From contig NC_087250.1 in assembly GCF_037042905.1 (NCBI RefSeq), positions 21,640,001 through 21,704,000 on the forward strand: a DNA stretch of 64,000 bases, given 5' to 3'. The stretch's first letter is position 1. Every line of letters begins with the position of its first letter. The translations under genes and the position numbers were made by a program. Below, piece by piece: positions 2,685 to 39,649 of the stretch. The DNA is from Lytechinus pictus (lineage: Eukaryota). Below the pieces are notes generated by a model. The model saw nothing but the letters and a program-made list of their open reading frames with translations, was not told where the DNA came from and ran no database searches.

Positions 2685-3880
2685 AGGTATGCTCCGGGCT
2701 GAATATTTTAGTGTCTCAATAAAAGGGATGGTCCGGGCTGAAAGTATTTATAGCTTAATAAATAGAGTAGAATTCACTGAGCAAAATGCCGAAAATTCAT
2801 CAAAATCAGATAACAAATAACAAAGTTATTGAATTTTAAAGTTTAGCAATATTTTGTGAAAACAGCCATGAATATTCATTAGGTGGGCTGATGATGTCAC
2901 ATCCCCACTTTGTATTTTATCATATGAAATTAGGTTTATTCAAATTTTTACCTCCAAGAACTAGAAAAATTGGATTGACAACTGATTTAGTGCATTAGAT
3001 ATTTATCGCTGCAACTTATTTCATTATAAGAGAGATACATTATTCACACAAGTGAATAATAAAAAAATATGATTTTATGTAATAACATAAGAAAACGGAA
3101 AGGGGAGATGTGACATCATCAGCCCACCTAATGAATATTCATGACGACTGTTTTCACAAAATATTACTAAATTTTAAACTTCAATAACTTTATTATTTGT
3201 TATCCGATTTTGATGAAGTTTTCTGCATTTTGCTCAGTGAATTCTACTTTATGTATTAAGATATAAATATTTTCAGCCCGGACCATCCCTTTAATACAGT
3301 GAAATTCACAGAGCAAAATGTTGAAATTTGATCAAAATCGGATAACAAATAAGGGAGTAATTTCATTTTAAAGATTTGCATTATTCCGGTTAAACAGGTC
3401 TAGGCAAGACTTCATGAATATTCATTAGGTTGGCTGATGATGTCATATCCCCACTTGGTCTTTTGTATCTTACTATATGAAATTAGGTTCATTCAAGTTT
3501 TTCTACTAGGAATTAAAACAATTGGATTGACAACTAATTATTTTTTAAATTGATTTTATCATTTTATTATTTAATTTATAACATCAGTCATTTCTTGCTG
3601 CAACTTATTACATCATAATGGAGACACACCATTTACATATATATAAAACAATTATGATTTCATGCAATGACACAAGAAAAGGGAAAGTGGGGATATGACA
3701 TCATCAGCCCAACTAATGCATACTCATGAGACCTGTCTAGAACTGTTTCACCGGAATAATGCAAATCTTTAAAATTAAATTTGTCATTTATTAACCGATT
3801 TTGATGAAATTTCCGCACTTTGCTCAGTGAACTTTAATCTATTTATTGAGATATAAATATCTTCAGCCCGGAGCATTTGT
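2685..3880. mobile_element. Kolobok-like MITE family A, with a younger same-family copy nested at 2724-3290
   Basis: Outer copy TTAA|AGGTATGCTCCGGGCTG...CAGCCCGGAGCATTTGT|TTAA. Inner copy AGGGATGGTCCGGGCTG...CAGCCCGGACCATCCCT|TTAA. Long inverted arms. Confidence 0.82.
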
Positions 3881-4259: not shown

Positions 4260-4782
4260 ATACATTCGTAATTCCGAAGCTTCGTTATTCCGAAGGTTCG
4301 GATATTTCGAAAGTTCGTTAGTCCGAAAACGAAATGAGGTTCGTAATTCCGAAGGTTCGTTAGTCCGAAAATGAAGTGAGGTTCGTAATTCCGAAGGTTC
4401 GTTAATCCGAAAACGAAATGAGGTTCGTAATTCCGAAGGTTCGTTAGTCCGAAAACGAAATGATTAACAAACCTTATTTCGTTTTCGGACTAACGAACCT
4501 TCGGATCAACGAATCTTATTTCGTTTTCGGATTAACGAACCTTCGGAACAACGAACCTTATTTCGTTTTCGGATTAACGAACCTTCGGAACATCGAACCT
4601 TATTTCGTTTTCGGATTATCGAACCTTCGGAATAACGCCACAAATGTTCGGATTAACAATCCCTTTTACGTTTTCGGATTAACGAACATCGAGGTATAGG
4701 CAATTTACGTGTTTCGGAATTACGAACCTTCGGAATAAAGAACCTTCGGAATTACGAACCTTCAGAATTACGAAGTGTAACC
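4260..4782. mobile_element. Foldback-type element built from inverted arrays of ~42-bp TTCCGAAGGTTCG units
   Basis: Left half reads (cgtaattccgaaggttcgttagtccgaaaacgaaatgaggtt)n and the right half is its reverse complement. A decayed relative lies at about 51800-52190. Confidence 0.75.
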
Positions 4783-5984
4783 ATTTCATTATTTACCCAT
4801 TTTGTCCATTATCTGGAGTGGATGAAAACGGATAAGGCCGCCCCGAAATGTTGCTTGTCTGTTGTATCCGTTAATGTGAATACGTCTTGTGTCCGTCGGC
4901 AAGTACAGTGAGACTACACACGTAGCCCAATCAAAATACAATGAAGCTTGTCAGAATTGATTTCTTTTTTAAAGATAACTTTCCGTTGTCCATTTGAAAG
5001 AAAATCTTATATAAGAATATAATCTAGAAAGTTAAAGATTATATCTATTATCCGTTTATTTTTTAAAGCATCATGGCATAATTTTCCTTACAAAAAATAT
5101 GTATATACTTTTAATAATGAGGGGAAAATACATAATTATATAATTATAAAACCAGTATTCTACCAACTGTAATACCTAAATGTCTTATTAACTGTTCTAA
5201 TGAAATCGGTTATTATATTTACTTTTTAAGGGAAGTTCACCCTGAGACATGCAAAAGTAATTATCGACGCATGGTTCGCTATCATGCATCCGGTAAATTT
5301 GCCATGCATAAGTAATTAGACGCATGGAAAATTTACCGGATGCATGGCTGCCCATGCGTCAATAATCACTTATGCGTGATACGCACTCTACATTCTTTAA
5401 CCATTGATTGCATCGACTATATTAAATGTACAATCAATCGTGACAATCAAGCATGCGATTAATCGCTAACCTTTGTGTTACGGGCCCTTTGTAATTGTAG
5501 GTTAATCCTTGTGTAGATTAAGAAAACAGATACAAGGACATAAAGGTACGTTTTGTTCTCACATATTATAGAAATACGAGACAAATAATATATTTATATC
5601 ATTATTAATATTAAAGAAGTTTCTACATTGATGAAAAATCCGAACATAAACATTTTGATTTGGGAAATTTCAGAAGTACTGCTGTCCGATGAATTATTCG
5701 AAAAAATTGATAGAGTGCATACTTGACCCCACATCAAACACATTGGGGCTTGTCAAAATAGTTATATTTTGTTTGAAGAAAAATCGGGCCTAAAATATTG
5801 TGACAGAAAATTTTTATATACATAAAAAAATATTTAACTTACAAAGTTAACGAATATAAATAATCCGTTTTCAAGACTTTTTTAAGCAACAATATATGCT
5901 TGTATAAAATTTTATTATATTTCACTTAGAGGATCTACCCGACAAACAAAAAAAACCCTACTATTGTACATGAACCTGAATACT

Positions 5985-6861: not shown

Positions 6862-7630
6862 TAAATGTGAAATTAGATGGTCGAATGTTTATTACCTTGT
6901 GTAAGGATATATATCTGACATTCCATATCTGACCAGGGAGGCGCGATAGCTCAGTCGGTAGAGCGGGGAATTGTATTCCGGTGACCCGGGGTCGATTCCC
7001 ACGTGGTGCGCTAGTGCCCTTTGGTAAGGCATTAATCCTCAGTACCAGGTCCTTCGGAGAGGACCATTAGCCGTCGCTCCTCTGGTTGCTTGCTTACAAG
7101 CATTCATGCTTTCTTAGCAATCAGGTAAAAAATCATCACCACCACTAAATATATGACCGCAGAAGGGTATAGTAGCCAGCTCATTTTAAAAATAAATCGC
7201 CATTTATGAAGATAACTATGATAGGATCAAATTCATCAACTGAAACATTAAAATAGCCCCAATTCTTCCGGCAGTCACAAATAGTTCCAAATCATTGAAA
7301 TATCTTCCCAATTCGGGCAAAGGAAGTTCAGTAGTTACCATTTCTAGATCAGTGTTAGATTTTGAATCATATCCATACACTTTGTCAATCAACAATATCA
7401 AATTGAAAAAAAAATCGAATGGGTTGGGTCGAACGAGTTGTTTTAGCCCTCCTGATGTAATTAGGCTCATGGAACTCTTCGTACTTCATATTAAACTTTT
7501 CCACGTATGAACAGCTTCTACTTGACTTGAAACGATGTATAGCCTAAACTTACGATTGTTCAGGCTGGCCAAATATTGATATTTTTAAAAAGAAACTGAG
7601 AAATCAAGAAATGATCCAATATCATAAACT
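6862..7630 (+). repeat. Near-identical direct duplication, copy 2
   Basis: Same sequence as 1-769. Duplicated ORFs appear in the ORF track (355/7216, 434/7295). Confidence 0.95.
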
Positions 7631-12548: not shown

Positions 12549-14387
12549 TTTCGTTCACTTCCTCTTTAGAAATTGGAATAAAATTCGAAATGCGAGTGCA
12601 GAGAACGAGCGCATTTTTTTTCGATACGTATGGAGGTGAACAGTTCTTAAAATATAACATGAATATTAAAAAATGAAAAAATTTATTGTTGTTTTATTGT
12701 AATTTTCGGATTACCCGGAATTACCTGAAAATGATCTCGGGTAATTTTCTTGATATAGGAAACACTGGAGGAAAAAAAACTAACACGGTCAAGTATTTCT
12801 TCCTCCTTCATATCAAAATAATTTACAATATTTATTTTATCCTAAATTTGACTTTTTTTGCTTTATTTTTATATTTGATACGATACAATTTTTAGAAACC
12901 TTTGCGACCATGAAGAGTTTAAAAGTTCGATATCCATGGTAGAGATGCCCCCCCCCAAAAAAAAAAAAATGAAGTAGTGTGTTATGTATGAAAGGAATGT
13001 GTCTTTGTTTGTCATTTGTATTATATCTTCTTAATTGCTATATCTATCAATGAATTGGATTCAGATTCAGACCTTCTTCGGAATCTATTTCTGTTTTTTT
13101 TTTTTTGGTTCGGTTTCATTTTTTAGATATAGAAGAGATAAATTGGATCGATTTCTTTCATTAAAATTCAGTAAATATTTTCGAAATAATTGTTTTAGCC
13201 CCCGTAATATTACATCTCTTGAATGAGAGTGGATTCAGATTCGCACGCGATATTCTCCGCAATTTCTTCTTTTCTTTTTTACATTTGAGCTAATGTCAGT
13301 GTTCCCAGCTCTTCAGGGAAAATTATTTTACTTTTTTCCAGTCAGAGATAAAAAAGGGATTTGATTTTTAAAAATGCCTCCTATCAAGGAAAAATGTCTC
13401 AAATGAGGGAAAATTCAGGGAATTTTGATCGGCCCAAAAGACGATAGCACGGTAGTCAGTCAGACTCTGTTATATTGTGTTGTATATCATTTGTCCTGTC
13501 TTGTCCAAGTGATTGTCTGTTCACACACTCCTGAACTCATGTTTTTTTATACAGCAGGGGTATATATGATATAATATTTTTTGTTAATTGTAACATAGTA
13601 GGCATAAAAAGCTTGACCCCACTAGTATTCTTTTTCATTGTACAAACCTTTTTAATTTACGATTTGAATTTCATTGATCAAAGATATACATTAATTAACT
13701 ATTTATTGCAGGGAACCCATACTAACAAGCTTTGCTTTCCAGTGGGTTCCCTTTTTTTCATTTCTGTATATTATATTTTTGTGTTTTGCTATACATTGTA
13801 ACTTTTGTTAAATTTTGGAATGAAAAAGAATAAATGCAATCAATCAACAACAAAAAAACATCCATTGAATGACTGGTTATGGTGGTACTAATTAGTTCTA
13901 CATTATTTGATTTTTTTTTCTTGACAATACATGTAATTCACTGCAACAACGTAGAAATCGTGCGAAATTGGTAATGGGTTTAAATAATTATCAGGGTTTT
14001 TTATTTTATCAGGGAAAAATCAGGTAATTTTACTTCCGTGAAAAGCTGGGAGTGAAGGAGGTTCAGAAAACCAGCGCAACTTTTCGTAAGACATAGGGTG
14101 GTCTGTGATATTATAGTAGGTAAACTGACACTCATTCTAAACACAGAATGGTGCGCTTCAAAACTTTGGGATTATTATAATTCGTGAATGAAAATGCTTA
14201 CTGTACGATGGACAATGATATTGATACACATTTAAGTCTTAAATAAAAAAAAAGTTAATTTGAATATTTTCTTATTTGCATGATGAAAAAGCAGTTTTTC
14301 GAAAAAATCAATATTATTTGAAAATACATAAAATTAATTATTAAAAATATGAAGTAATGCAATGGATGTTATGTGACCGCTTGTTAA

Positions 14388-14968
14388 AGGGATGGTCCAG
14401 GCTGAAAATATCTATATCTTAATACAAAGAGTAGAATTCACTGAGCAAAATGCCGAAAATTTCATCAAAATTGGATAACAAATAATAAAGTTATTGAAGT
14501 TTAAAGTTTAGCGATATTTTGTGAAAACAGTCGTCATGAATATTCATTAGGTGGGCTGATGATGTCACATCCCCACTTTCCGTTTTCTTATGTTATCACA
14601 TAAAATCATAATTTTTTCATTATTTCATACTTGTGTGAATAAAATGTTTCCCTTCTAATGAAATAAGTTGCAGCAACAAATATCTAATGCACTAAATCAG
14701 TTGTCAATCCAATTTTTCTAGTTCTTGGAGGAAAAAATTGAATAAACCTAATTTCATATAATAAAATACAAAAGAACAAGTGGAGATGTGACATCATCAG
14801 CCCACCTAATGAATATTCATGACGACTGTTATCACAAAATATTGCTAAACTTTAAAATTCAATAACTTTGTTATTTTTTATCCGATTTTGATGAAATTTT
14901 CGGCATTTTGCTCAGTGAATTCTATTCTATTTATTAAGCTATAAACATGTTCAGCCCGGATCATCCCT
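14388..14968. mobile_element. Kolobok-like MITE family A (other copies at about 28823-29408 and partial at 60682-60860)
   Basis: TTAA TSD at 14384-14387 and 14969-14972. The empty site is visible in the paralogous segment at 16444-16447. Confidence 0.88.
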
Positions 14969-16477
14969 TTAAATTTGGGATAACTAATATTGCTTGAGCT
15001 TGAGGAAAATGCTTGTGATCGATTCTCTAATTTTGTTCGTCTACTTTTCTATTGGATACCAAGAGTTAGGCGCTTTGAGCAGTCGTAGATTGTTTTTACG
15101 CGTAATTCTAAAGCAAATTATTATTTTTGAGCTAGTTTACCATGAATGAAATCATAGGAAAACTTCATAATATCTATATTACTCAATGCTAGGTCAAGTC
15201 TTGTGTTATACTCCTAATAATTATGTATGAGTGAGAATAGAAGTATCATATAATACAGTCTAAGGATAGAATTTTTGAGAAATTTAAGATGAACTACATT
15301 CTTGATTATAATTATATTTTACTTTCGTGTGATGTAGCACTTACTCTCAAGTGAGATCTGTGCTGGCCAAAAAGTACTTATTAATGTACAAAATCCTATG
15401 GCGACAACAGCCGTCAACGTAGAAGGTGCTAACACATACATACATACATCAATCTATCAATTAAAAATAGTGATTTTGTTTAATTTACATGAAGATGAAA
15501 TACTTTTTAAAAACAATTTCCAATATATGTTTTACCATCTTTTTTTAATAGAAATATATATGTTTTTAATTGATAAACAGATTTTCATCGAAACGCCGTC
15601 TTGTTTTTTTTTCTAAATTCATGTGTAAAATCTTATAATCGATTCTCCCATTCTACTCAATTGTTCCGTTGCCAGACGGTGGGATCGGAGGGGGGGGGGT
15701 GAAACCATTCGCTGGGTTACCGGGGGGGTGGAACTGATTAGCTCAAGTGTTTCATCCATCGCAATTTACAATATTTCATTTATTTTTTCGGCTAAAGGGC
15801 CCTTTTTTCTTTCAATAATTTTATTCATCAAAATATCAACATATATACAATATTTACATACTCTCAGTACATGTAATACATATACCATGCATACAGTATA
15901 ATACTACACTCCAAACGCTTATATATAACAGAAAACTTCTACTAAGAACATCAAGAAAAGTAAAAAGTCAAGTGTAAAACCACCACGGTAATAAGTTGGC
16001 ACCTTATATTCTATTTCCATGATATTGTTGTGATATATCTATAGTTTGTGAACATGAACATCGGAACAAATAGAGGAATGAAGTAGTGTAGGAAAGGGAT
16101 GTCTAATCATTTCTATTGCAGCAAACCAGCGCAATCTTCCAAAGAATTGAGAAAGACTGAGAATTTCAAGTAGGTCATCTGGCATTCACTCTAAACACAG
16201 GATGGTGCGTTTCAAAATTTTGTTAGACTGATACAATCGCTGTATGAAGTGTAACTTCTACACCGTAGAGGACATCAATATATCAATACACATCAAAGTG
16301 TTCAATAAAAATAGTTTAATTGAAAATTTCTCATTGAGCATAAAGATAAAGTAATTTTTCGAAAAAAAATAAATAGAATTAAAAATCTATAAAATTAAGT
16401 AAAGAAATATTAAATGATGCAATGGGTATTATGTGATCCCTTGTTAAATTTGGAACAACTAAATTGCTTTCAAGGAT

Positions 16478-19075: not shown

Positions 19076-19779
19076 CACTATAATTAGATTCAGATATTCT
19101 AATTATTCATAATGCAATCAGGTACAAATGGATATTCAATTCAATTAAATTTACTTTACATTCTTCAACATAATACAATAAATACAAGACAAATCAATAC
19201 AATTTAAAATAAAAGTATGAACAAAATTAAACATTGAATAAAATGATATGATATACATATTTAATAAGTAATTTATCATGAACACAAAATATTACATGAT
19301 ACACGTGACGGATCCGGGGGGGGGGGCACATCCTGCCCATAAACAAAATTGTAATGTAAATATGCCGTTCTTACACAAGTGTGCCCCCCCCCCCCTTGGA
19401 AGTCACAGCATGTTGACTGAATGACCGTCACGTTTGGTTGAAAACTTTTGTTTGTATTGGTTGTTTGTCTTTTTTTTTGGGGGGGGGAATGTGCTCCCCC
19501 TTTAAAAAATCCGCCTTGATTATACATTTTCGTAAACATTATACAAATTATCAAATATAATCATTATCATCATCATCATTATCGCCATCATTATTGGGGG
19601 CGTTTTATAATTTATCAAAACTATATGTTTGTCTCATTAAAAAGAAATCTCTTCTCATTGATATTATTTATCTTTATTTATATCATCATTATTATCATTT
19701 TGGTTTTTATGCCAGAGCTCCTCTTCATAATGAGGTACTGTATGTCTTTGAACACACACAAAAAATGTTGTTAGAGAAA

Positions 19780-20640
19780 TAGCGCCCTCTCGTGATCGTA
19801 ATGGTACATGTGTACGTGTCACGCCTTCTTTCTGGGTTGTGAACTTGTGTTGTTGAGGAAGCCGGGTTCATTAGAAACACCAACACTGCTCAGATTTAAG
19901 GAGTTCTTTGGCAACATTTGTTTGATTGATCTACAGGGTACGTATGATATGATATGCCGTAATCTGTGATGTATTGTGATTTATCAAAAGATTTGCATTT
20001 GAGAATTTAGAGGATCGGTAGCAGCCATAGCGCGCAGCGGTGATACTTTAGCGTAATTTGTAAGCCGAAACTGCTGGGGTGGGTGGGCTACCACAGGCAC
20101 AGCCAGCGTGATGCGTTTTGACGGTGTGTTTCTGATGATCGTCTATTGTACATATGCACTGTACATGCGAATAATGACCGAGTCAGTGCACTCGTCATCC
20201 CCGACCATTTGCCATACAGCAAAAGGTAGGGGATGGGACTAGAGGTATGTGAGGCGTACTCAGTCATAGACAAAATTTGTTATAAAAATGTAAAAGTAAG
20301 AGAGTTTGACTTAATACCAGTCTCCCCCGAACCAAACGTTGATCTTCCTTCCGTTGCTGTAATTTATCTTGGAATCAACGATATATTGTCATTTGAAGAT
20401 TCTTCGAGAAATCGTCGGAATGTGTGATGAAATTTGTCATGATCCTCAGCAGCGCATAGACTTCTACGTAGAGGATGTAACGCGCCCTCTTGTGCTCAAT
20501 TAAAGAAAGCTAACGGAAGCGACCACACCACTGACCTCTACAGAGCTGTATAAAAATGCTTCTCACCACAGTGCACAGATACCTGTTTCCGGTGATGCTT
20601 CTATTTCGGATCTCCGAGATCCAGCGATAGTAGTCTCTTT
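19780..20640 (+). promoter_or_regulatory. Candidate UAP1 promoter and non-coding first exon (about 19810-19937)
   Basis: Locally CpG-richer and non-repetitive. CTCF-like motifs at 19780-19797 and 20481-20497, ETS-like TTTCCGG at about 20586, donor AGG|GTACGT at 19938. The ATG exon begins at a splice acceptor, so an upstream UTR exon is required. The link to UAP1 is inference. Confidence 0.45.
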
Positions 20641-22262
20641 CTCCCCTGACACAATATTTTTTTAAATTATTTTATACACAAAAATAATTGTTGTAGCACC
20701 ATCAGCTTAGTCTATTCTATAATGAACTGTATCTTGTCGTATGGTGAAAGGAAATATGATGCCTTTTTTGGGGGGAGGGGGGGTTATTGCTTCTTCTCTC
20801 GATCCCCCGATCCCTCTCTTGATGAGTACTATCATTGTAAGGGTTAATCATTAATATTATTTTGGTTTTCTATTATTTTTCATATTGTTGTTGAATATTC
20901 ATTTTCATCATCATATCACTTTTGTAAGCCCACATTTTGTACCATCCTGGAATTAATATGGGTAAAGGGTGAAATGTGAAAAGAATGAAAGGGGCAAGGA
21001 ACTCAAAACAAAGTGATAAAACAGAACATAATTACGTTCCATTTTTTTAAATGAGTTTCTTTTATTTATCCAGGATGGGGAGCACATCAGGCTCGTGCCC
21101 ACCCTCTCGAAAGCCATAGAACAGATTTATTTTGCATCCATTTTGTTTGATAAATTTGATAAATTGTTAATTTCATTTGATTGTAATCCTTTATGTTGTT
21201 TGGATTTGAAATCAATTAAATTAACTTGAAACTTAATTTCCTGCCCTCCCCCTTGAAAATTTTGATCTGCCCCTAAATAGGCCTTTGTGGTAAGAGATTT
21301 TTTATTTCATTTATTTTTTAATGAAAATCCTTTAGGTTTGGATTTTAAATCAATGAAAACAAGCTCGGGAAATTAAATGATTTTGACTTTGTATCAATAC
21401 GAAACAAAATTGAAAATTTGTCTTGATTGAGGCTAACAAGACTTCCTTACCAGAATGCATTACGAGCAAAGTTTCATCGAAACCTCAACGGTCAGTGGTG
21501 CAAACGGGTTGATGAGCCTCTATGGTTTCGTGAGATCTTTTTTCTTTTTCGATTTGTCACTGTTGAACACCATAGACGTAATGGAGGCAGTTGGATGAGG
21601 TTCACATAGAGAAATCGGTGATTTTTTATATTATATTTATTAATTTAAAGTCATTTCCGTCAAAATAACAGTTTTTAACAATGGAGCAGTTCAAGTATGA
21701 ACTGATTCGCGGGGGGAAAATGAGCAATGTATATTTTGACAATTGAGAGGTATACAGCCAAAAAAGAGGTTATATTATATAACCTCGTTCGTAGGATGAG
21801 TGAGTCAGTGAGTGATGAAAGCGCCTAACCGAGTGCAGTGCGAGCGTTTAGATCAATAAATTGTACATCGAGGCCGATTTTAGTTAAATTTGCCAGTATT
21901 GACATTTATGTGAGGGTGTGTTTGTGTTCTATTTTCAGCATTGAAAATGAGAGAATGTTAAACTAAAAGTAAAGCGGCCAAATCGTGGTTTCGGGAACCA
22001 GCTCGTCAAATTGCATGTACGCGCACTTGTGTACAAAGTGAATGGAGGTGGAAATAGGGAACCGTGCGTGTGAATGAATAAAGCGCTGCTGTATGAAGTG
22101 AACGGTGGTTTCTAATATCACGATATATAATGCCAGTAATAAAGCAGAAGATTGTGAAAATAAATTATAGCATTAAAATATATTGATGAAGCCAGGTTTG
22201 AAAAAGTTCGAGAAAAATCCAGATGAAGATTAAGATAGTCAGAAAATCTATTGGAATTTTAA

Positions 22263-22849
22263 AGGTCAAGTCCACCCCAGGAAAATGCTGACTTGAATAA
22301 ATAAAGAAAAATCAAACTAGCATAGTGCTGAAAATTTCATCAAAATAGGATGTAAAATAAGAAAGTTATGACATTTTAAAGTTTCGCTTATTTTTCACAA
22401 AACAGTGATATGCACATCTAGGTGAGTCAGTCGATGATGTCCATCACTATTTCTTTTGTTTTTTATTGTTTGAATTATACAATATTTCATTTTTTTGAGA
22501 TTTGACAATAAGGACCAACTTGACTGAAACATATAGTATTAAACAATGCTAATGCCACATGTTCAAGGAGGAATTAATCGTTGTATCACTTGCCAATGAG
22601 GAGAAAATTAGAATATTTCATATTTGACATAATGAAATACAAAAGAAAGAGTGAGTGGATGACGTCATAGTCTCCTCATTTGCATACCAGCCAGGATGTG
22701 CATATAACTGTTTTGTGAAATTCAGCGAAACTTTAAAATGTCATAACTTCCTTATTTCACATCCGATTTTGCTGAAATTTTCAGTGTTATGTTTGTTGGA
22801 TTTTTCTCTTTTTATTCAAATCAACTTTTTATTGGGGTGGACTTGTCCT
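22263..22849. mobile_element. Kolobok-like MITE family B (second copy split into about 26614-26904 and 34425-34722)
   Basis: TTAA|AGGTCAAGTCCACCCC...GGGGTGGACTTGTCCT|TTAA. Confidence 0.85.
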
Positions 22850-23046
22850 TTAAGTTTTTGAATTGTCACATATCTTTTATTAGTCTACGAGCAACTGGCC
22901 CATTAATTCTTTATTTTTTAATTGTTCATGTCATCACAACTAAAAAATTTCTCCTTTTTGGAGCGGGTGTGAAATGAATTGTCTGTTGATAAAGCCAAGG
23001 TAGAACTCTAGATCTAGATTGGATTTGCCGAACTCATTTTTTTTTT

Positions 23047-23830
23047 GTCTCACCTGCATAGCAGAGTGAGACTATAGGCGCCGCTTTTCCGACGGCGGCG
23101 GCGGCGTCAACACCAAATCTTAACCTGAGGTTAAGTTTTTGAAATGACAGCATAACTTAGAAAGTATATGGACCTAGTTCATGAAACTTGGCCATAAGGT
23201 TAATCAAGTATTACTGAAGATACTGCCTGAGTTTCATGTCACATGACCAAGGTCAAAGGTCATTTAGGGTCAATGAACTTAGACCATGTTGTGGGAATCA
23301 ACATCAAAATCTTAACCTAAGGTTAAGTTTTTGAAATGTCATCATAACTTAGAAAATATATGGACCTAGTTCATGAAACTTATACATAAGGTTAATCAAG
23401 TATCACTGAACATCCTGCATGAGTTTCACGTCACATGACCAAGGTCAAAGGTCATTTAGGGTCAATTAACTTTGGACGAATTGGGGGGTATCTGTTGAAT
23501 TACCATCATAACTTTGAAAGTTTATGGATCTGATTCATGAAACTTGGACATAATAGTAATCAAGTATTACTGAACATCCTGTGCAAGTTTCAGGTCACAT
23601 GATCAAGGTCAAAGGTCATTTAGGGTCAATGAACTTTGGCCAAATTGGGGTATTGTTGAATTACAGCCATAAATTTGAAAGTGTGTTGGTCTAGTTCATA
23701 AAACGTGGAAATAAGAGTAACCAAGTATCACTGAACATCTTGTGCGAGTTATAGTAGTTTTCAAAATCAGCACTGCTGCTATATTGAATCGCGTGATGCA
23801 GGTGAGACGGCCAGAGGCATTCCACTTGTT
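23047..23830 (+). mobile_element. Helentron-associated (HINE/DINE-1-like) non-autonomous element; second copy from 63604 to beyond 64000
   Basis: Sits in a T-run. Subterminal IR GTCTCACCTGCAT/ATGCAGGTGAGAC, (GGC)n microsatellite, internal tandem repeats, short 3' hairpin and no TSD. Confidence 0.7.
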
Positions 23831-26800
23831 TGTTTTTTTGAAAATGATATTTCAAAGGTAATCCTGCTTACCTTGGTTGTTGAGAGACATCACCGATGTC
23901 CGACGACTGAGTTCATGTTGCTCACAATCTCTGGTATAAAACTATAATCTCACTCTGGTTTCTGGTATGGTCTCTGGTATAAAATGGTCTCTACCGTGGC
24001 CCGGCGTGGCAGCTCTTTAATACGTGGCTGCCGGGCCTACGGTTGACTGCGCAGCAAGGGCTGTTGATCGGGGGAAACCAGGGGAATCAGGGGCAGGGTC
24101 TCCTGCCTTACATTGTAATCTCACCGATTACTATATTTCATTATTTTTAAAAATTGAATTCATGATATAGATCTACATGTGAAGCTGCTTGCATGTGATG
24201 TGACAAATGAAAAATTTGAATTCTAATAACGTATTAAAACTTTGAATGGGTTTTCCTCAAACCTTCACCAATATTTCAAATTATTTGTTTACAATAAAGG
24301 TTTGTCAGGGTTAAATTTCCCTTTTTATTGAGTTTTGTTGAATCATGATCACCCCACCCCCAAGCCTAATGTTAGTCTTGAGATGCATGGATGGATAGAG
24401 TAAAAAAATCAGTTTGATCTTTAGTGTAACTAATTCTAACTAAATAATGGCAAGTAAAGTAGAACCTATTTAAAAAAGAAAAATGAAATAAAAACAGGGT
24501 CACCAAAATTTTGCAAGAAATTCAGAAAATTGTGGTTTTAAATGTTGATTTTTCATAGCTCTCTTCATGTTCTTGCAAGAGACAAGGATTTTATCATGAA
24601 AATAACAAATAAAAAAAGCAGGCGAGGGAAATAATCAACCTCATTGAATTCCTGTGTAAATCCACTCAGGAAACATGTCAACATAACCAGATTTAAAAAC
24701 TTTGATTGAATTGAAATATTGTTTTGTGAAAAGAAACACTTGTTTAGAATAAAAAAATTGCAGAAAAGTTCAGATTATACCTTGGGCATTTTACTAAAGG
24801 GGCATGTTGCATAAAAGAAACACTCTGAAAATATTTTGTAATTAATGTCATTGGCATAATTTTGTTTGCCAGAATACATGGCAAAGCTTTAATTGTTTAG
24901 GCATAACGTCTAGTCAAAGACAAGAAAGGTCCTACAATGTACAATGTGCATGTATCATGAAAATGGAATCCTGAGTATTCAAATTTGATATTTTGGCTAC
25001 CTCTTCATCTCTTTACATTTCGTTATTCTTCCCTCTTTCTCTCTCCTCTCTTCCCTCCGCTCCTATTTTCTTTACTTCATCTATGTTTAATTCTTGGTTT
25101 CTAGTTGATTTTATTAAAGAATATATTTTCTGTTCGATGTTATGCTCTACCATTCCAGTTAGCGTTCTTTAGACAGTAGATTGCACTTGACCACTCGGAG
25201 CCGGAACAATGAAATGGTCAAGTTACTTCATTGTTCTGGCCCTGAGTGTTTGGTCGGGTGGGTTGCTGTCATAGATCGCTGACTTTCAATGTAACTTCCA
25301 ATTATACTTTGTTTAAAATCTTGACAATTTTCTCATCATGAACAAATCTATTTCTGCTGTTTTACAGTAGGTTATTTTCTCAATTTTTAAATGAAATCAA
25401 TCATACAGTGTATCCCAATATTTTTCTTCGGTCATTCTACATACATGTATTTTGCCTTTATTTACCCCCCTTATATTTCTGTAATGTGTATGAAGCTCAA
25501 GTGCATAATTTAACTCTTATGTTCTTTATATTTGATTATCTTTGTTAATCCGTAGGTATATAATTTCATGTATTTTCCCTTTTTTTCTGTTAATTTTGTA
25601 TGTAGTTAATAGTCTTTGGACTGTTTTTACATTGTATTCATATATTAAACCGAATTGAATCGAAAAAACAATTGAAATTGACAAGAAAAATTAAATGTAC
25701 AGTACATGTAGATCAGAGGGTGTTTTACGATTGAGTTTGTGTGGCTTCAAATGCTTATTATGCTGATGGGCACATGATGTAGCGTGCAAATTATAGTTTT
25801 TAAATACCAGTTTGATAACATCCTCAAAATGAGTTCGAAAAGAATCCGATGAAGTTACCACCCAAGTATTATGTATTTAAATAAAAAATATGTGCCAAAT
25901 GACTCTTGAAAAAAATGTGTAATTGTTGAGAAATGAGTAAAATAAGCACGGAATTCCGTCAAATGTTGGGTATATTTCCCAAGCAATATTAATACACTGT
26001 CCCACGACCCACATGTACACGATGTACTTATGCTTATTACGTGTAAGTCAAAATGGTCATCAGAATGATCAGTTTCGGGGCAAAAATTATTTTCATGATT
26101 ACACAAAGATAAGTTTACACTGTATCAGATCTAAATCTATGGTGACAATGATTAAAGATGTCCATTTTATACCGCAAAAAACTGGGAATTTAATGTCAAT
26201 AAGTGTGACTTTAACCGCCGTTTCACATGGTAAAAAAATGTAGTTTGAATGATGATTCCAGTGAAAAATAACGCTAATGAAAATATTAAGCACGTGTGAA
26301 ACCAAACTAGAACGTGATTAGTATCACGAACGCTAATCACAATTAGATTACAATCAAAATCATTATATTACAATGATGATTCTAGATTCATGTGTGAAAA
26401 GGCCCTTAGTCACACTTAAATCTTTGTGAAACACCCCCAGGATATTAAACAAAATTGAGTGCAGAGGAGCATTTCATTCACATTTTCCATCTGACGAGCT
26501 CTCTTGGTTTTGATTGGCTGTGAAGCATGGTTTCTATGGCAACTGTCGGATAAATTGAACTCGTTGGAAAAAAAATGTCCAACAAGTCCTTTTATGATAA
26601 GGCAGTGGTAATAACAAGTCCACCCCAACAAAAAGTTGATTTGAATAAAAGAGAAAAATCCAACAATTATAACACTCAACATTTCTTCAAAATTGAATGT
26701 AAAATTTAAGAAAGTTATGACATTTTAAAGTTTTGTGTACATTTAATTTTACATATATATGCACATCCTGGATAGTATGCAAATGAGAAGACTGATCTGA

Positions 26801-26918
26801 TGTCATCCACTCACTATTTCTTTTGTTCATGTACATGTATTTTCTCCTCATTGTCAAAGTGAAACAACGTTTAATTCCTCCCTGAACATGTACAGTATTG
26901 GTTTCCCAGGTCAAAAAA

Positions 26919-27475
26919 CCAGTTAAGGACCAGTTCATCCAACTGGTACTGGTACCAGTTGATTCCAGTTAGCGAACTGGATTCAATATGGAAATTGGAA
27001 TACTGGAATCAACTGGATTCCAGTTGATTCCAATACTGGAATCAACTGGAATCCAGTTGACAAATTGTAACTGGTACCAGTTGGAAATACCAGTTGGCAA
27101 CTGGTCCTAACTGGTACCAGTTAGCAACTGGTACCAGTTGACAACTGGTCCTAACTGGTACCAGTTAGGACCAGTTGGAAACATGAGTTGTCAACTGGTG
27201 CCAGTTAAAACCAGTTGGAAACAAAAATTGTCAACTGGTGCCAGTTAGGACCAGTTGGAAACATGAGGTGTCAACTGGTGCCAGTTAAAACCAGTTGGAA
27301 ACACCAATTGTCAACTGGTGCCAGTTAGGACCAGTTGGAAACATGAGTTGTCAACTGGTGCCAGTTAAAACCAGTTGGAAACACCAGTTGTCAACTGGTG
27401 CCAGTTAGAACAAGTTGGAAGCACCAGTTAGGACCAGTTGGAAACATAAATTGTCAAGTGGTACCAGTTAGAAAC
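26919..27475. repeat. Left subterminal array, 40-bp unit (80-bp dimer)
   Basis: tcaactggtgccagtt recurs at 27191, 27231, 27271, 27311, 27351 and 27391, alternating ttaaaa/ttagga. Confidence 0.92.
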
Positions 27476-28139
27476 ACCCTGCAATGTATAGCATAAACAA
27501 AAATGAATCATGTGGATATGTACATTCCCGATCTTTTACTCTTCTCATATAATTACTCCTTCGTTTTCCTTGCGCACACACACATTAGAATATTGGTACC
27601 AACACCCCCCCCCCCCCTCTCAGGCGGTTATTTCAATTATAAATTATCTTCAATTATCTTTACATTGAATGTCCACTCCTGTTATAACAATGTGCATGGA
27701 CAAGTGAAATAATTATCCTTGCACATAGGACTGATGAAATGAATCAAGGTAAATTTGTAGCATTGTATTGAAACCTTGTTAATTTCCACATGCACAATAT
27801 AACAGGATTGGACTGTAAACTTGCTCTGGTAAATCAATCCCTCAGTCTCTTGAAATCTGTACCAAAAAACATCAGAGAATGACAAAAGTCACAAAAAACA
27901 TCTATATGGTATTTAAACTAGGAATTTAATGAAAGAAAATTATGTTACAAACTGTAACATGCTGTGTATAATTCTTGTATTATGTGTCAACAAAGATCAT
28001 TAACTTACACAGTAAATATGTAGTCAATCCAATTTTTACATGCTAGCTTGGAGACAAAATTTGAATATAATGCATCTAAGCATTTACCTTCAATAAATAA
28101 TATGTACTATTTTTAAAGGAATGATAAAGGAGTCTTTTT

Positions 28140-30822
28140 TTAATGATTATTTATTGAGATCTTGGGGCCCTCACTGGCTCTGAAGAGGAAACGTGAAACA
28201 GGTACCTTCCTTTCCTGTAGTGGCACTTTGCTGGTAGATGCGATGTATCTGAAGATTAGAAAAAAAAAACCAATGGAATGAAAAATAATAAGTACAGTGA
28301 ATACCGTAATACAAAATTTCAGTGGTGTAAAATTATATCTGCACATAAAGAAAATACATGGGATAGTGAAACTTCTCTAAGTTCCATATTTCAATGATTC
28401 AATTATAAATGATAGACAGCACATCATCATTTTTATTACAACATGTATAGTAAGTTCACATGGTCTTGGGAATACTTCTGAAATTGACATCGCAGAGATG
28501 AAATTGCCTCAACCTTATACCTATACATTTATTTTAATAATAAAGACTTAGACTATGTATGTTTGCATATATGTATCTAGGAGTCTATGTTGCACATTAT
28601 CTGCTAACATCTGATGGGTATTTCATGATTGTCAGTGCCGACTATTTCAGTGAAATCATTGCTTTTGATTGGCTGAGAAGCACTGGCCTCTGACTGTTAC
28701 TATGGTAACTGTCGGAAAAAGACAACTTGTTGATGCTGACAACTTTCAAAAAGCAGTTCCCAGAACATGTTTAAAAACGCAAGACAAAGCAAAAAAAAAA
28801 ATGAAATACAAAATTTTATCCGAGGATGGTCATGGCCGAAAATATTTACATCTAAATAATACTTGAGTAAAATTCACAGAGCAAAATGATGAAAATTTCA
28901 TCAAAATAGGATAACAAGAAGTTATTGAATTTTAAAGTTTATCAATATTTTGTGAAAACAGTTGTATGCACTTCGTCATGAATATTCATTAGGTGGGCTG
29001 ATGTCACATCTCCACTTTCCTTTTTTTTATGTTACTAGATGAAATCATAAATGTTTGATTTTTTCATACATGTGTAAATGATGCGTCTCCATTGTAATGA
29101 AATAAGTTGCGTCAATAACTAATGCACCTAATCAGTTGTCAATCCAATTGTCAATAGTTCTTGGTTAAAAATATCTTCATAAACCTAATCTCATATAATA
29201 AAATACAAAAGGGCAATTGGGATATGACATCATCAGCCAACCTAATGAATATTCATAAAGACATGCCTAGAACTATTTCACCGGAATAATGCAAATCTTT
29301 AAAATTCAAAACCTTAATTAATTATCAAATTTTGATCAAGTTTTCAGCATTTTGCTTTGTGAATTTTACTCTATTTATTGAGATATGTTTCCAGCCTGGA
29401 CCATCCCTTTAATTCTACTTCTACGGTACCCCCACACATACTGGTAAGTCAGAGGTAAAAAACAACGAGAACCAATTTAATTTCAAAGATAAAAAAATAC
29501 TCCAGCCTCCAGATTTAAGAAAAAATTCAGGAAATGTTATTTTAGTTCAGACTAATTGTGCACGTTTCATTTCGGAGGTCAATCTGAAATTATACTTCCA
29601 GTTCCAAATTCACGCCATTTGGTTATGCAAAAGCATGAATTAAAATTGATGGGCATGGGCCCATGTCACTGGCTAGCCTAGAGGACTCCATGAAGATAAT
29701 TTTATCATTTTTACATTGTATTTTCATCACGGAGCCTAGACAAGCCTCCTATAAGGTTGCTCGTACAACTGTGTAAACAAAGATAGATTTCCCTCGGAAA
29801 TCCACCTTTCCCATAATGATTTTTGGGCAAACATTAAATTTTTACATTTTGTAAGCCTTGATACTCTAAATGTGTACAAAGGCTTAAAAAAAAAATAATT
29901 GTAAAATGTACAAATTGGAAATTTTCTTACAAAAAGGATCACTTGCTTGCAGATCTTGTCCTCACTGCCTCTGAAGAGTTCACGTGCGACAGGTACATTC
30001 CTTCCCTGTACTGGCACACGTTCTTTGCTGGTAGATGCGATGTATCTGAATAACAATGGAGAGAAAAATAATCAGTACAGTGAACAGTGAATAAAAATAC
30101 GTCTATATTACAGTGAATAGCAATACATGTCTACACCTAAGGCGGGCAAGGGTTACTACAGAGTGTTGTAAAATTCCATTTGAACATTAAGAAAAATACA
30201 TGGGATTGTGAATCAATGATTCAACTATAATGATAAACAGCACATCATCATATTTATTTTAAAAAATGAGTAAGTTCACTTGGTCTTGGGAATACTTCTG
30301 AAATCGATGTCGCAGAGATCAGTCCTTCATGTTTATAATTCCATGGAGCTCAATAAATGGCTCTCCTTATGCCTCCGAATTTGCTTTCCTAGACACACTC
30401 AATTTTATAAAATGCTCAATTGTTGTAGATTGTTATTAAAATTGTAAATGCAACAGCTGTGTAGCTATTAATTAATCTGTGGTGAAACTAGGCTTGGGTC
30501 ATGTACAAAAATATCGCGCTCCTCAAAAAAAAAATTATAAGTAGGGTGTCCGAACTCATATTAGGCCTAAAAAAAGTGCTAGAATTTCATATTTTACATC
30601 TTTAAAACCATTAAATCACCATCTCTTTTCCATAATTCTCATAATAGAAGATACACAAAGACCCCAAAAGAAAACTTGACATCTGAATTACCTAACTTAC
30701 AGCCTCCTCATATGGAGGGCAGCAACGAAGTATTCGGATCTCCACTCCTGAGTCCTGGCGGTTCTGAGCTGGGCCTTCTTCTGGAAACTACCGGTACCCC
30801 AGGTCATGTTCACTGACTTCAT
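28140..30822 (-). CDS. Putative spliced 109-aa ORF of unknown function, complement(join(28140-28248,29947-30045,30701-30822))
   Basis: Acceptors tttcAG (before 30874), attcAG (before 30045) and cttcAG (before 28248). Donors GTAAGT (30700) and non-canonical GCAAGT (29946). The frame stays open across both junctions. No expression evidence. Confidence 0.35.
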
Positions 30823-30874
30823 CTCCTCCTCGAGGCTCAGTATGACTCCAGGTGGTTTTGGGTCTCCCTCTCTC
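30690..30874 (-). mobile_element. 3' terminal fragment of an RTE-clade LINE
   Basis: Frameshifted translation ERGRPKTTW.../EEEMKSVNMTWG..QKKAQ...EWRS..FVAAL resembles the RTE ORF2 C-terminus (RGRPKxTW...W...AQDRxxWRxxVxAL). Confidence 0.7.
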
Positions 30875-31589
30875 CTGAAATACACAGTCAAAAAGTGATA
30901 AACAGCTATTCATGAAAAAATCAGACTCTTAAAATGGTGGAAAAAATAATGAATTTCGATTTTCGGCATTTCAAAATCTCATCAAAATCCTCAAATCGTG
31001 TGTAAAGTGATTGGTGCGCAGACACGAGGCGCTGGCCACTATCATAATGTTAAATCTGAAATTGAAAATCATAACTGGCTGAGTCTCAGATTTTTTCCAA
31101 GACCAAGAAAATCAGTTTCACATTCGATCACATATCTCTCTCATTTACTTATAACAATATATGGAACAATATCAACTGAAAGATTTTGTGAAATAAAAAG
31201 AAATTCATGTTAAATCTTAACACAAATCGTAAGGTCAATATGATGTATGTGCGCAGACTTGAACCGGCATGGCAGCCACACATCCACGCCCGGCTAGTCC
31301 CGGCCGGCAGGCAGCGCTGAGGGGCAGTAACAGGATGTCCTGACGAACAGCTAACGTTACAGCTAGCCCCGCAGCTAGCTGCGAGCCGCGCCATTTAACA
31401 AACTACGAAAAGAAAATCATAGAAAATTGTTAACTTACCTGTAGAGCCTACTGCGAATGTCTTAGCTTTCAAGTCATTGTCCAAATCTGGTCCGTGTGAT
31501 TTCAGTGGTTGAATTATTATTAAAACGGCCTTCTTTACCCTTCTTTATCGCACTAGCACTCGATAAAAGTGCGGTGCAAATTAACGGCG

Positions 31590-31750
31590 CGGCGAAGATG
31601 GCTCTTTCAAATTCAAATTAGATTGGCGGTTTGCGTTTTGGCGGCGCTGGTTAATTTGCATAATTATACGGACGATAGCGATCAGTGGCACTCAGTGCGC
31701 ATGCGCAGGCCCGCCCGCGCCCGGTGATTGAAGGAAGATCTGCTGAGTCA
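31590..31750 (-). promoter_or_regulatory. Pol II promoter-like motif cluster inside the transposon
   Basis: Perfect NRF1-type TGCGCATGCGCA 31696-31707, GC box 31710-31716, octamer ATTTGCAT 31654-31661, E2F-like TTTGGCGG, CCAAT on the minus strand (about 31622-31626), TTTGAA twice, and YY1-like GCCATCTT. CpG-rich over 31250-31730. Minus-strand donor CAG|GTAAGT at 31438. Confidence 0.65.
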
Positions 31751-33064
31751 GGAATAACGAAGGGGGGGGGGGTCTAAAGCAAGAAAGAAGTTTTAAAATA
31801 GAAATACGAACTTCTTAACATACAAATTTCTTCTTGTTTGGTTTTGGTTGGCAACCAGTCAAGAAATGACGATTTTTGCCTCTGCTTTTGGAGCTTTTTT
31901 TTTTCTTTGAAAGTTTAAGAATGAATTAGCTTAATATTTGTTCTTTATTTCTATTTTATTTATTTTCTTTTTATTTGAAAGATAAAGATAGCCTTGCTTA
32001 ACATGGCAAGGTTGTAAACTAGCAATAAATATGCGCGATATAAATAGAAAAAAAATAGCTATTCTATTCACCTTCAAAAATATTTTTAAAATATCAGTGA
32101 GTTAAAAAAAGAAAAATACATTAATTTTTATGTGATTTGTAAAAATAGTGTAAAATAGTCCTCTTTAACTTAAATTAAAAAAAAGGGATTAAATAGGAAG
32201 AATTTTTTTTTCTCGCAACAAATATCTAGGATAACAATTTTTTTAATGTAAACTAGAAAATTTCACTGAGAATAACATGTTTCGATTTAAGTTATATGGT
32301 AATATCGAACCACATACTTTAATGAAATTTTTCAAGGTGGAAATATTAAAATTAACATAAAGAATAATTAAGTTAGTTATTATGTAGATATTTTTTTCCT
32401 CTTATCCTCAATCGAGCTGTGTATAGGATGGATAAATGCATGGCATTTATTGTGGTAAAAGGCTGAATTACATGAATTTGTACAGAGCAAAATTTCAGTA
32501 AACAAATAAGCAAAAAAAAAATAACAAAGTAAACTAATGTATAATATTGGAAAGGGGATACAAAAAGAAAAGTATACAGGGAGGGGGGGGGGAGTAATGT
32601 CAAAAGCAGGAACGGGCAAAGGTTGGGAGTAGGCTAAATGTATATACCTTTAACATAATGAACATTTTCACATAAATATATATTTAACCAATGTTGAATG
32701 AATAACAATACATGTAGATTAAAGAAAAGATTGTATGAAATAATACTTGCTTTTTTTTAAGAAAAGTAACGCTTTGTTGATGGTAACAATAATAATAGTT
32801 ATAGGAAACACATTCATGAATGATAATCATAAAGAATTATCTCAAAAGGAATTAAAAACAAAGATAAGAGGACTTTGAAGTAATATGATCTGTACAAAAA
32901 ATATAAATATTAATGTAAAGTGGGTTACAGCTATATTGAGCCAGTGACTTGTCGGATAAGAAATTTGAATGATTACTGCAGATATCAACAATTACAAAAA
33001 TATTTCAAAAGTCAGTTTAAGAGAAGCGACAAATAAAACAACAAAGGTATGAAAACATAGTTCT

Positions 33065-33095
<31 letters not shown>

Positions 33096-33180
33096 AACTC
33101 TGTTGGAAATAAGTACAATGCATTACCACTATGCCTCTAATATACATATATATATATGTATATATTATATATGTATACAC

Positions 33181-34410
33181 GGGTTCTTACTAGAATCAGC
33201 TGGTAAGTCCTATTGGTTCTAACTGGTATCATTTGGTTTGATATTCCAGTATGGTTAATGGGTTTCAAGTGGGTTATGGGTGGCCTATGGGTTCCAACTG
33301 GTATAATCTGTTCCAGTTTGGTTTATGGGTTTTAACTGAAATCAGCTGGTAGATATATACTGGTAATGCCTATTGGTTCTAACTGGTATCAATTGGTTTG
33401 ATATTCCAGTATGGTAAATGGGTTTCAAGTGGGTTATGGGAGGTCTATGGGTTCCAACTGGTAAAATATGTCCCAGTTTAATTGATTTATGGGTTTTAAC
33501 TGGAATCAACTGGTAGTATACCAGTAATGTATGTTGATTTTAACTGGTATCAATTGGTTTGATATTCCAGTATGGTTAATGGGTTTCAAGTGGGTTATGG
33601 GAGGTCTATGGGTTCCAACTGGTAAAATATGTTCCAGTTTGGTTTATGGGTTTTAACTGGAATCAACTGGTAGTATACCAGTAATGTATGCTGGTTTAAC
33701 TGGTATCAATGGGTTTGAAATTCCAGTATGGTTAATGGGTTTCAAGTGGGTTATGGGAGGTCTATGGGTTCCAACTGGTATAATCTGCTCCAGTATGGTT
33801 TATGGCTTTTAACTGGAATCAGCTGGTAGATATGCCAGTAATGCCTATATTGGTTCTAACTGGTATCCATTGGTTTGATATTCCAGTATGGTTAATGGGT
33901 TTCAAGTGGGGTTATGGGAGGTCTATGGGTTCCAACTGGAACACTCTGATCCAGTTTGGTTTATGGGTTTTAACTGGAATCAACTGGTAGGTATACCAGT
34001 AATGCATGTTGGTTCTAACTGGTATCAATTGGTTTAATGATATACCAGTATGGTTTATGGGTTTAAGGTGGCATTAACTGGTATATACACCCATTGGGTT
34101 TCTATGGGTTCCAACTGGCATCAAATGGTCCAGTTTGGCTAATGGGTTTTAAACTGGAATCTATTGGTAGATAAACCAGAAAGGCCTATTGGTTTTAACT
34201 GGTATTAACTGGTGTACTAATTTATACCAGTATAGTTAATTGGTTTCAACTGGAATAAACTTGTATGTTTTCAGCATGTCCAGTTGAGACAATGGGTTTC
34301 AACTGGAATATACTGGCATGGTGGGAGTTTACCAGTTGTGCCAATTGGTTTCAACTGGTACCAGTTGACTCCAGTTGAAACCAGTTAAAATTTCAACTGG
34401 TTTCAACTGG
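33181..34410. repeat. Right subterminal array, ~160-bp unit (~6-7 copies), AACTGG-rich
   Basis: gatattccagtatgg or close variants recur near 33240, 33400, 33561, 33718, 33878 and 34040. Confidence 0.92.
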
Positions 34411-36249
34411 TTTTTTTACCTGGGTTAATGCTGTATGGTTCAGTCAAGTTGGCCTAATCATCAAATCTGTAAAAAGAGGAATAGTGTATAATTCAAACAA
34501 TAAAAAACAAAAGAATTGGTGATTGAGGGATGTCATCGACAGTCTCATTTGCTTATTTTGTATATTTGCTGAGTTGTGCATATCACTTTTTTTTGTGAAA
34601 AATAAGCGAAGCTTTAGAATATTACAACTTCGATGAAATTTTCAGCATTATACTACATGTAGTTTGGTTTTTCTCTAGATAAAGTTTTTGAAATCAACAT
34701 TTTTCTTGGGTGGACTTGACCTTTGAATACAGAACACTCGCTCTACACTCAGTAGGCCTACAGTATGTTGCATTGACAAATTTTATAATGACTGTGAAAT
34801 ACTGTACAGTGTACACAGGTTCGTCAAACATACATGTGAAGCTAATATTGGATAATTGATCAGCCACCAATGTAAACAGGATGCTTGGCACAGGTGTCTA
34901 AAAATTACACTAGGGCCGTCTGCACCAGCCTGAGTTTTCAAATTAGTGTGGTATTTCTGATCTGGCAGATCATCCCGATCCAAACAATATCAAGATTATT
35001 TGCAATGGAGACGCAATTATCGCGCTAGTTCACTGGATTAATCTCGAGATTGCAATCCCAAGTCAACTTAGGATTGCAAAATAGCACGCTATTTTACAAA
35101 AAAATCATGCTAATTCGCACTTCACAGGTGCAGACGCACTCAGGATTATTTGTGCGATGCGTCTGCCGTCACACCTTAATGCATCGATTCCTCGCTGGAG
35201 CAGGAATCACTCTTCTTGCGATGGTGGAGACAGGGTTTCTTGAATCTCGAGATTAATCACGAAGAGGCCCAATCAGGCTAAAATCTCGAGATTGAGCAAA
35301 CTCGGGCTGGTGCCGCACCGCCTACTGACTCAATGTAGGGTTGGTGGGGGTTGGATATCCACTCACTTTCTTTTATCTGATTTCAAAAATGAAACAAAAT
35401 AAATGAAATAAAAATAGCACATATTTTTATTGTTTGATGTTTCCATTTGTATCTCATTATCAAATTATAAAAGTTGAAATACGTGTCCCGCCTGCAAAAT
35501 TCTGTATATATCGCCGTCCTGGAATCATGTGTCTCAGAGACAGGCAATGTATTGGTCAACGAATAAATCACGCATACATTGTCGAGGACATGGGGCAAAT
35601 TTCCCTTCAGAAAAGCCAAAGAGAGCCTTGGAAATTCATATAATCCAATGTAAATTGCCTACATTATATGGCTGGTTAGCTAAAAAGGTATCAAAGTCTC
35701 TGAAAATTTTGTGTTAATTTTTCGTGTAATTGGCATGTTACTGCTTTTAATTAATGCCTGTTTTTCAAGCCACTTGCTTGCTGATCTAATGATTATTTCA
35801 TGTATTCATAACATTTTTTTGTGAGGGAGTTATTCAATCAGAAAGTGGGAGGCATGGTCCCGAATCTATATCATTAGGGAGCAATATATATACAATACAT
35901 GTTTTTGTAAAATTATTTTCCTGACCAACACACCCCCTTGGCTTTCATTTTTTTTCTTGCCAAAAGCCCATTTCATCTTGGAGTAATATTGCCATTTTTT
36001 TTTTACTAAAACCCTGAAAATACTCAGCACCCCCTCTTTAAAAGACGTTCCCAGGGCCCCGGTGGGAGGTGGCACATTTGCAATGATACATTTCCCATGC
36101 CTCCAAGTAGGAATACACAATAAAGTTACATAGCTACTTACCTTGACCTTAATTTGACTTTGGAAAGGGTCAGGTGATCGATGTCAATTTGTCATGTGAC
36201 AGGGGAGTGTCTGATGATTTATCTTGTCAGCGATAATTGCCACTGACTA

Positions 36250-39330: not shown

Positions 39331-39607
39331 ATGGACGTGACGGCTCTACGCAACAAGCTCTCTCAACTCGGCCAAGATCATCTCCTAGAATTCTGGGATG
39401 ACCCCGACCTGACTGATGACCTCCGGAGGTCACTCTATACTGATATCACTGGCACCAACGTCGAGGAGGTTTTGAAGTTCTTTGAGACGTCGACAGCAAA
39501 CATGAATAACAGTGAGAAGGTGGATGAGAGGATGGAGCCGATCCCGTCAGAACTCTTCGGCTCCGTAACAAGGTCTGGAAAGAACCTGGATAGATGGTAC
39601 AAGGATG
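39331..39607 (+). CDS. UAP1: UAP1 coding exon 1 (MDVTALRNKL...DRWYKD/G)
   Basis: Acceptor ttctctgaacAG ends at 39322, ATG at 39331, donor G|GTAAG at 39608 (phase 1). GQDHLLEFW resembles the UAP1 N-terminal motif. Confidence 0.93.
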
Positions 39608-39649
39608 GTAAGAAAAGGTTCTACATTGGAATGTAATAATGCAAATTGT

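Follow-up and report, generated by a model that had tools for sequence, protein, structure and literature searches.

The subterminal repeats of maize En/Spm are bound by TnpA. Animal TRC elements are marked by CCC ends and 2-bp target-site duplications (TSDs) (PMC1636069), CMC transposase motifs are described in PMC12730594, and the model proposed for Arabidopsis Pack-CACTA elements has closely spaced insertions and terminal deletions giving rise to hybrid elements (PMC6379663). Here, we present the analysis of a transposon in a 64,000-nucleotide stretch of the genome of the sea urchin Lytechinus pictus (contig NC_087250.1, positions 21,640,001 to 21,704,000; hereafter the window, whose own numbering is used below). 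This element, at 26905-34424, is a real, young, non-autonomous animal CACTA/EnSpm copy. We hold with moderate confidence that, lacking a transposase of its own, it is likely moved by a related one, and that an old non-coding transcription unit likely came to lie under replaced EnSpm ends. Taken alone, it is an ordinary non-autonomous EnSpm copy; the new aspect is a single non-coding interior under five sets of ends.

An earlier note, made from the letters of the window alone, had proposed exact boundaries for this element, 20-bp terminal inverted repeats (TIRs), asymmetric subterminal arrays, and an insertion splitting a MITE (miniature inverted-repeat transposable element). Comparison of ends and flanks bears out all of this, with exact limits at 26905 and 34424 and two TIRs that agree at 19 of 20 bases, the mismatch being base 8. 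ACCAGT/ACTGGT hexamers number 32 in the leftmost 571 bp and 28 in the rightmost 1244 bp, where ~1 is expected; 500 Markov samples gave at most 5, and the interior has 2. On either side of the element lies one half of a MITE that is intact at 22258-22853, and the halves rejoin with a single TT. The CCC-start short TIRs, 2-bp TSD and subterminal arrays thus agree with the assignment to a non-autonomous animal CACTA/EnSpm type, and the interior encodes no DDE transposase, which sets the element apart from an autonomous EnSpm. The features of the ends and of the insertion site are as follows.

26614 to 26904, minus strand: left half of the host MITE, into which the element inserted (alignment to the intact copy)
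26903 to 26904, no strand: left copy of the 2-bp TSD, TT (sequence)
26905 to 26924, plus strand: left TIR, beginning CCCAG (exact genome matches counted below)
26925 to 27475, no strand: left subterminal array of ACCAGT/ACTGGT, 40-bp period (hexamer count)
33181 to 34404, no strand: right subterminal array, period ~160 bp (hexamer count)
34405 to 34424, minus strand: right TIR (identity to the left TIR)
34425 to 34426, no strand: right copy of the TSD, TT (sequence)
34425 to 34727, minus strand: right half of the host MITE interrupted by the element (alignment to the intact copy)

The exact 20-bp TIR has 109 matches in the 812-Mb genome (control, 0), from which we estimate ~55 copies of the family to which the element belongs, hereafter family A. 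Among 37 family A loci fetched, the left end was recognisable in 36 and the copy could be closed in 30; a matching 2-bp TSD, of 8 kinds in all, flanks 29 of these 30, the match extending to 3 bp in 1/30. Two further copies closed later also have matching TSDs (2/2), so that 31 of the 32 other closed copies do overall. The earlier note had asked for other full-length copies with different 2-bp TSDs, which are therefore present, and had conceded that its case would fall if the ends were never paired around this interior, whereas they enclose the same interior in multiple copies. The same family A composite stands at several sites with distinct TSDs, and this variety of TSDs shows repeated cut-and-paste insertion. 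Divergence from the family consensus is 0.36-0.63% in 21 of the 26 aligned copies, and decayed, older copies at 76-93% identity are also present in the genome. The typical length is ~8.15 kb, the copy in the window holding a single, not a double, internal 510-bp unit. Copies of 9-22 kb were considered as autonomous partners and rejected, their extra length being a nested long interspersed nuclear element (LINE) and other inserts, not transposases. Family A lineages also differ from one another by many 3-20-bp tandem duplications and indels plus substitutions, resembling repair footprints.

The interior of the element is a mosaic of a nested MITE, a duplicated module and a predicted exon 2, laid out below with the related families B-E that are introduced further on.

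28140 to 28248, minus strand: putative last exon, with predicted acceptor at 28248 and AATAAA at 28150-28155, RNA depth falling beyond
28157 to 28499, minus strand: 3'-end copy of the internal duplicated module, 69% identical to 29951-30319, with a homologous block in families D and E (alignment)
28824 to 29414, no strand: nested MITE, fixed in family A, with relatives at 2718-3295 and 14384-14972 (alignment)
29707 to 30217, no strand: unit of ~510 bp, tandemly doubled in most other family A copies and single here (copy alignment)
29951 to 30319, minus strand: internal duplicated module, with a predicted acceptor at 30045 (alignment, splice signal)
30701 to 30874, minus strand: predicted exon 2, common to families B and C (alignment)
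31439 to 31575, minus strand: first exon with GTAAGT donor, holding the core common to all five families; start at ~31575 estimated from read depth (reads, alignment)
31590 to 31750, minus strand: CpG-rich promoter region, in which RNA depth falls from ~47 to ~3 (composition, RNA depth)

A promoter-like motif cluster is present at 31595-31716, with motifs that we take to be YY1-, CCAAT-, octamer-, NRF1- and GC-box-like. The claim that the element carries its own promoter holds, as one-strand RNA arises from this internal promoter in two of three RNA runs (X9 and X11), from other copies of the family. Across 29616-31535, the depth of this RNA is 37-54 in X9 and 21-46 in X11; in both runs it is ~3 in 31536-31900 and fades below ~28100, and in run X10 it is 0.2-1.3 over 29616-31151. 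With the usual library orientation assumed, the transcript is on the minus strand, starting at ~31575 just below the promoter motifs and ending near the AATAAA at 28150. Since alleles that split the family are mixed among the reads, several family A copies contribute RNA; the private alleles of the copy in the window are absent or nearly so (e.g. 0/65 and 0/81 at 31300), and the reads do not cover the right third of the element, its right junction or the empty site. The minus-strand chain of splice sites described from the letters is partly upheld: the GT/AG signals are there, but no joint falls in the element among the 15 of 524 RNA joints listed, all of which lie in flanking repeats, and read depth over introns is close to that over exons. 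The splicing of the internal transcript is thus inferred from its signals.

An observation of its own concerns 31233-31427, where 14 of 51 molecules in X9 and 10 of 30 in X11 start exactly at 31233, with a depth of 65-81 at 31300 versus 17-30 at 30929-30941. This signal, which has no Rfam match, could be either a discrete ~195-nt RNA in intron 1 or a library bias.

The cargo gene expected by the earlier note did not materialise: the interior holds no recognisable gene or host gene fragment, and open reading frames (ORFs) of at most 68 amino acids (aa) in the isoforms enumerated. No ORF of at least 112 aa is found in the element, none of the 33 interior frames tested (of 65 listed) reaches the Pfam cut-off, and the longest ORF among 25 enumerated isoforms, an enumeration that missed the exon-2 acceptor, is 68 aa long and partly intronic; exon 2 contains a 35-aa ATG frame in the family A consensus. 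Searches of Pfam, Rfam, a protein database, an atlas and a HMMER library returned no Pfam, Rfam or protein relative of the interior above threshold. Exon 2 presumably resembles the frameshifted 3' end of an RTE-type LINE, without a database match; protein database, atlas and genome searches gave no LINE relative, and exon 2 as a free LINE was rejected once the apparent LINE matches proved to be family B. A small nucleolar or structured RNA cargo was likewise discarded, 13 Rfam matches all lying in the arrays far below the gathering score, as were three matches of a family D exon peptide that were inflated by repeats (with no atlas match) and an unsupported likeness of one small exon to the N-terminus of EnSpm transposases. 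The Pack-type capture suggested at first is not supported either: the non-self matches of the interior that were fetched and placed are family A copies or members of four related transposon families, and a host donor locus devoid of TIRs was not found in DNA searches that scored 40 candidates and were crowded by ~300 related copies. As no host origin was found, the element is not assigned to the Pack-TYPE. Its interior is unlikely to be a fresh capture of host-gene sequence; family A works like a Pack element all the same, moving a transcription unit.

The four related families, B to E, were reached by searches with exon 2 and exon 1, and all have CCC ends and 2-bp TSDs. Family B is ~7.4 kb long, with 175 TIR matches and a matching TSD in 10/10 closed copies; family C measures 11.4 kb or more, with roughly 40 copies (TSD matching in 3/3 closed); family D is ~10.5 kb long, with 44 left and 42 right TIR matches (6/7 closed copies matching); and family E is 11.3 kb long, with ~80 copies by subtraction and a matching TSD in the 1/1 copy closed. 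Altogether, the promoter and first-exon interior is found in five families and roughly 300 copies, to which we refer as the clan. All of them have in common a core of ~130 bp that takes in exon 1 and its GTAAGT donor, and a 19-mer from it has 249 genome matches (control, 0) and the core pattern none in metagenome contigs. Exon 2 and the block behind it are common to A, B and C, that block being inverted in A; a module block is common to A, D and E. Over their terminal 700 bp, families A, B, C and D show no mutual alignment, and the arrays of A, C and D have a TGGTA core in common. In the literature searched, no paper deals with family A or with shared interiors beneath different EnSpm ends, Repbase and Dfam lying outside this comparison. 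One family B locus also has an antisense piece (L156, ~4570-5020), which we take to be the 5' end of a LINE ORF1.

Many Transposase_21 genes are present in the genome, and two transposase-bearing elements are informative. The first, at C19:508574-532683, is a 24.1-kb EnSpm element with a GA TSD and a 774-aa open frame containing Transposase_21 and CMC motifs; it has a second gene on the strand opposite the transposase, the same hexamer arrays as family A and a TIR that matches that of A at 15/20. Its TIR type has 444 genome matches, most of the listed pairs being ~1.3 kb apart. The second, at C8:25607893-25635502, is a 27.6-kb EnSpm element with a TT TSD; its transposase frame is 836 aa long, it has divergent frames that we take to be BEN-like, and its TIR is identical to the family E TIR at 19-20/20. 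The transposases of the two elements are 39% identical.

The groupings given by ends and by interiors disagree. The interiors of B and C are 87-91% identical and gap-free, while their TIRs match at only 8-10/20. The TIRs of C and E match the C8 element at 15-20/20, those of D at 12-14/20 and those of A at 9-11/20, A being closer to C19. Family E aligns with the C8 element over both ends at 67-83%, and the C8 element is without the core. Old copies with B ends have interiors about equally near to C and to young B, and at one locus (L127, C8:18840500-18850400) an old family A left half abuts an inverted C-like interior, a junction that is a possible intermediate of nesting. As the ends resemble two EnSpm lineages with such distant transposases and the two groupings conflict, these data point to end replacement, and the interior probably passed between transposon lineages. 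In the simplest history, an ancestor with C8-type ends, retained in C, D and E, would have carried the unit, and A and B would each have gained new ends, possibly because one element nested in another and the inner or outer ends were then lost. The promoter would most likely be a hitch-hiker. Mobilisation would depend on a related transposase acting on the family A TIRs and subterminal arrays, the best candidate being the 24-kb C19-type element.

Several observations weigh against this history or its parts. An autonomous partner with family A's own TIR was found neither near the transposase loci read (ten read over 10 kb on both sides, and 20 more over 10 kb on the 3' side) nor with a relaxed CCCAGGT pattern, which gave no second family; as no transposase-bearing element with this TIR came to light, the C19 element is a candidate helper only. 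Among these loci, A-like arrays occur only in the C19/C2 family, but the family A ends do not align with the C19 element beyond the motifs. As for the source of the interior, the sequence fetched at eight transposase loci, with the C8 and C19 elements covered in full, does not contain the core. It was the core that led to families C, D and E, so their carrying it is by construction; family B was discovered through exon 2, yet carried it. A tree based on the core leaves the order among families unresolved, fast array turnover may make part of the end divergence vertical, and a single study supplied the three RNA runs.

Other histories have to be weighed. Selection could have acted on the promoter itself, keeping the element open or unmethylated in the germ line, raising its mobilisation and letting carriers out-replicate other elements. 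The spread of the interior over five families and roughly 300 copies, an active and sample-specific promoter, the retention of the core, GTAAGT donor included, as the sole block in all five, and its presence in family B, which was reached by another route, speak for this reading. However, identity of the core ranges from 75 to 86% over the 10 family pairs, against 77-91% for other shared blocks; excess conservation of the core was thus not found, and this comparison lends selection on the promoter no support. Moreover, short C19-type elements reach their 444 TIR matches with most listed pairs at ~1.3 kb, too short for the interior, and two other large elements are without the core. We therefore regard such selection as rather improbable. 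The same estimate applies to its bolder form, in which a non-coding promoter cassette acts as a parasite of transposons, having hopped between EnSpm ends and raised the mobility of enzyme-less carriers to ~300 recent insertions by several transposases; this, too, we consider rather improbable.

Pack-type capture, in which the clan ancestor acquired a host gene's promoter and first exons, the donor having since diverged, been lost or been missed, we judge unlikely. The promoter does resemble a housekeeping CpG promoter followed by a CpG-poor body, the autonomous EnSpm stretches examined do not contain the core, and animal Pack-TIRs carrying a promoter and exons exist, namely Ssk-FB4 as presented in PMC8277862. 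But no donor appeared: the fetched and placed matches to exon 1 (all 119 candidates scored) and to the module exon (150 of 231 scored) are transposon copies or remnants, and there are no protein relatives, although translated searches have limited power for non-coding DNA and the fetched set omits some weak matches.

Least convincing, and in our view quite unlikely, is vertical descent without any swap, the interior deriving, by decay, from the promoter and 5' exons of an accessory (TnpA/BEN-like) gene of an extinct autonomous EnSpm lineage, and the five end types having drifted apart: the C8 and C19 elements do contain a CpG-rich centre, from which the frames of the transposase and the second gene diverge, the family E transcript is oriented as the second gene of C8, the arrays of A, C and D share their TGGTA core, and truncated TRC copies are known to give spliced transcripts (PMC1636069), but the interior has no DNA or protein similarity to the autonomous loci, B and C interiors differ by ~10% while their ends cannot be aligned, and the ends of A and E match two separate transposase lineages. 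An accessory-gene origin can be compatible with end swapping.

In its genomic context, the element lies near a host gene whose identity as UAP1 was confirmed.

39331 to 39608, plus strand: first coding exon of UAP1, 4.9 kb past the element; 39331-39606 matches residues 1-91 of AGX1/UAP1 chains of solved structure

No UAP1 exon upstream of this one came to light. The observed/expected CpG ratio is near 1 at 19500-22500 and mostly 0.4-0.6 downstream, a profile compatible with a UAP1 promoter at 19500-22500, where the RNA depth was too low to place an exon. Because of this profile, a position of the element inside a UAP1 intron is plausible; the promoter of this copy is antisense to, and near, UAP1. 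Elsewhere in the window, two direct copies at 1-769 and 6862-7630 are 99.9% identical and are possibly the long terminal repeats of a young element, and a repeat at 23042-23830 has one-strand RNA at a depth of ~2000-2900 in all three runs.

To our knowledge, it is usually assumed impossible for a non-autonomous element to outlive its helper. Here, a long non-autonomous body seems able to do so by changing its ends. The clan offers a testable case for whether an internal promoter aids DNA transposition, and ~300 young insertions of an active, sample-specific promoter represent a source of regulatory variation in the sea urchin.

Among described systems, maize En/Spm and dSpm (PMC8978399; bioRxiv 10.64898/2026.08.24.746577) share with family A their TIRs and asymmetric subterminal motif arrays, and the mobilisation in trans described for them is the route that we propose, by analogy, for A; unlike them, A has animal-type CCC ends and a 2-bp TSD, and the likeness of its arrays is one of sequence. 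The animal Pack-TIR Ssk-FB4 (PMC8277862) is present, like A, in multiple copies with TIRs and distinct TSDs, and likewise mobilises a transcribed unit along with the promoter; it differs in being protein-coding and MULE-like, with an identified parental gene, four loci and one set of ends. SmTRC1 and its truncated derivatives (PMC1636069) resemble A in their CCC termini and short TIRs, in 2-bp direct repeats and tandem repeats at the ends, and in having transcriptionally active copies devoid of transposase. However, SmTRC1d1 is described there as a plain deletion of an autonomous parent, whereas the clan interior, which is found beneath five types of ends, matches none of the autonomous elements examined. 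Finally, Arabidopsis Pack-CACTA elements (PMC6379663) are, like A, non-autonomous CACTA elements with an internal promoter; theirs are 3-bp TSDs and interiors traced to host genes, while no host donor or coding fragment was found for A, and the hybrid-element route proposed for them fits the end replacement that we suggest for the clan.

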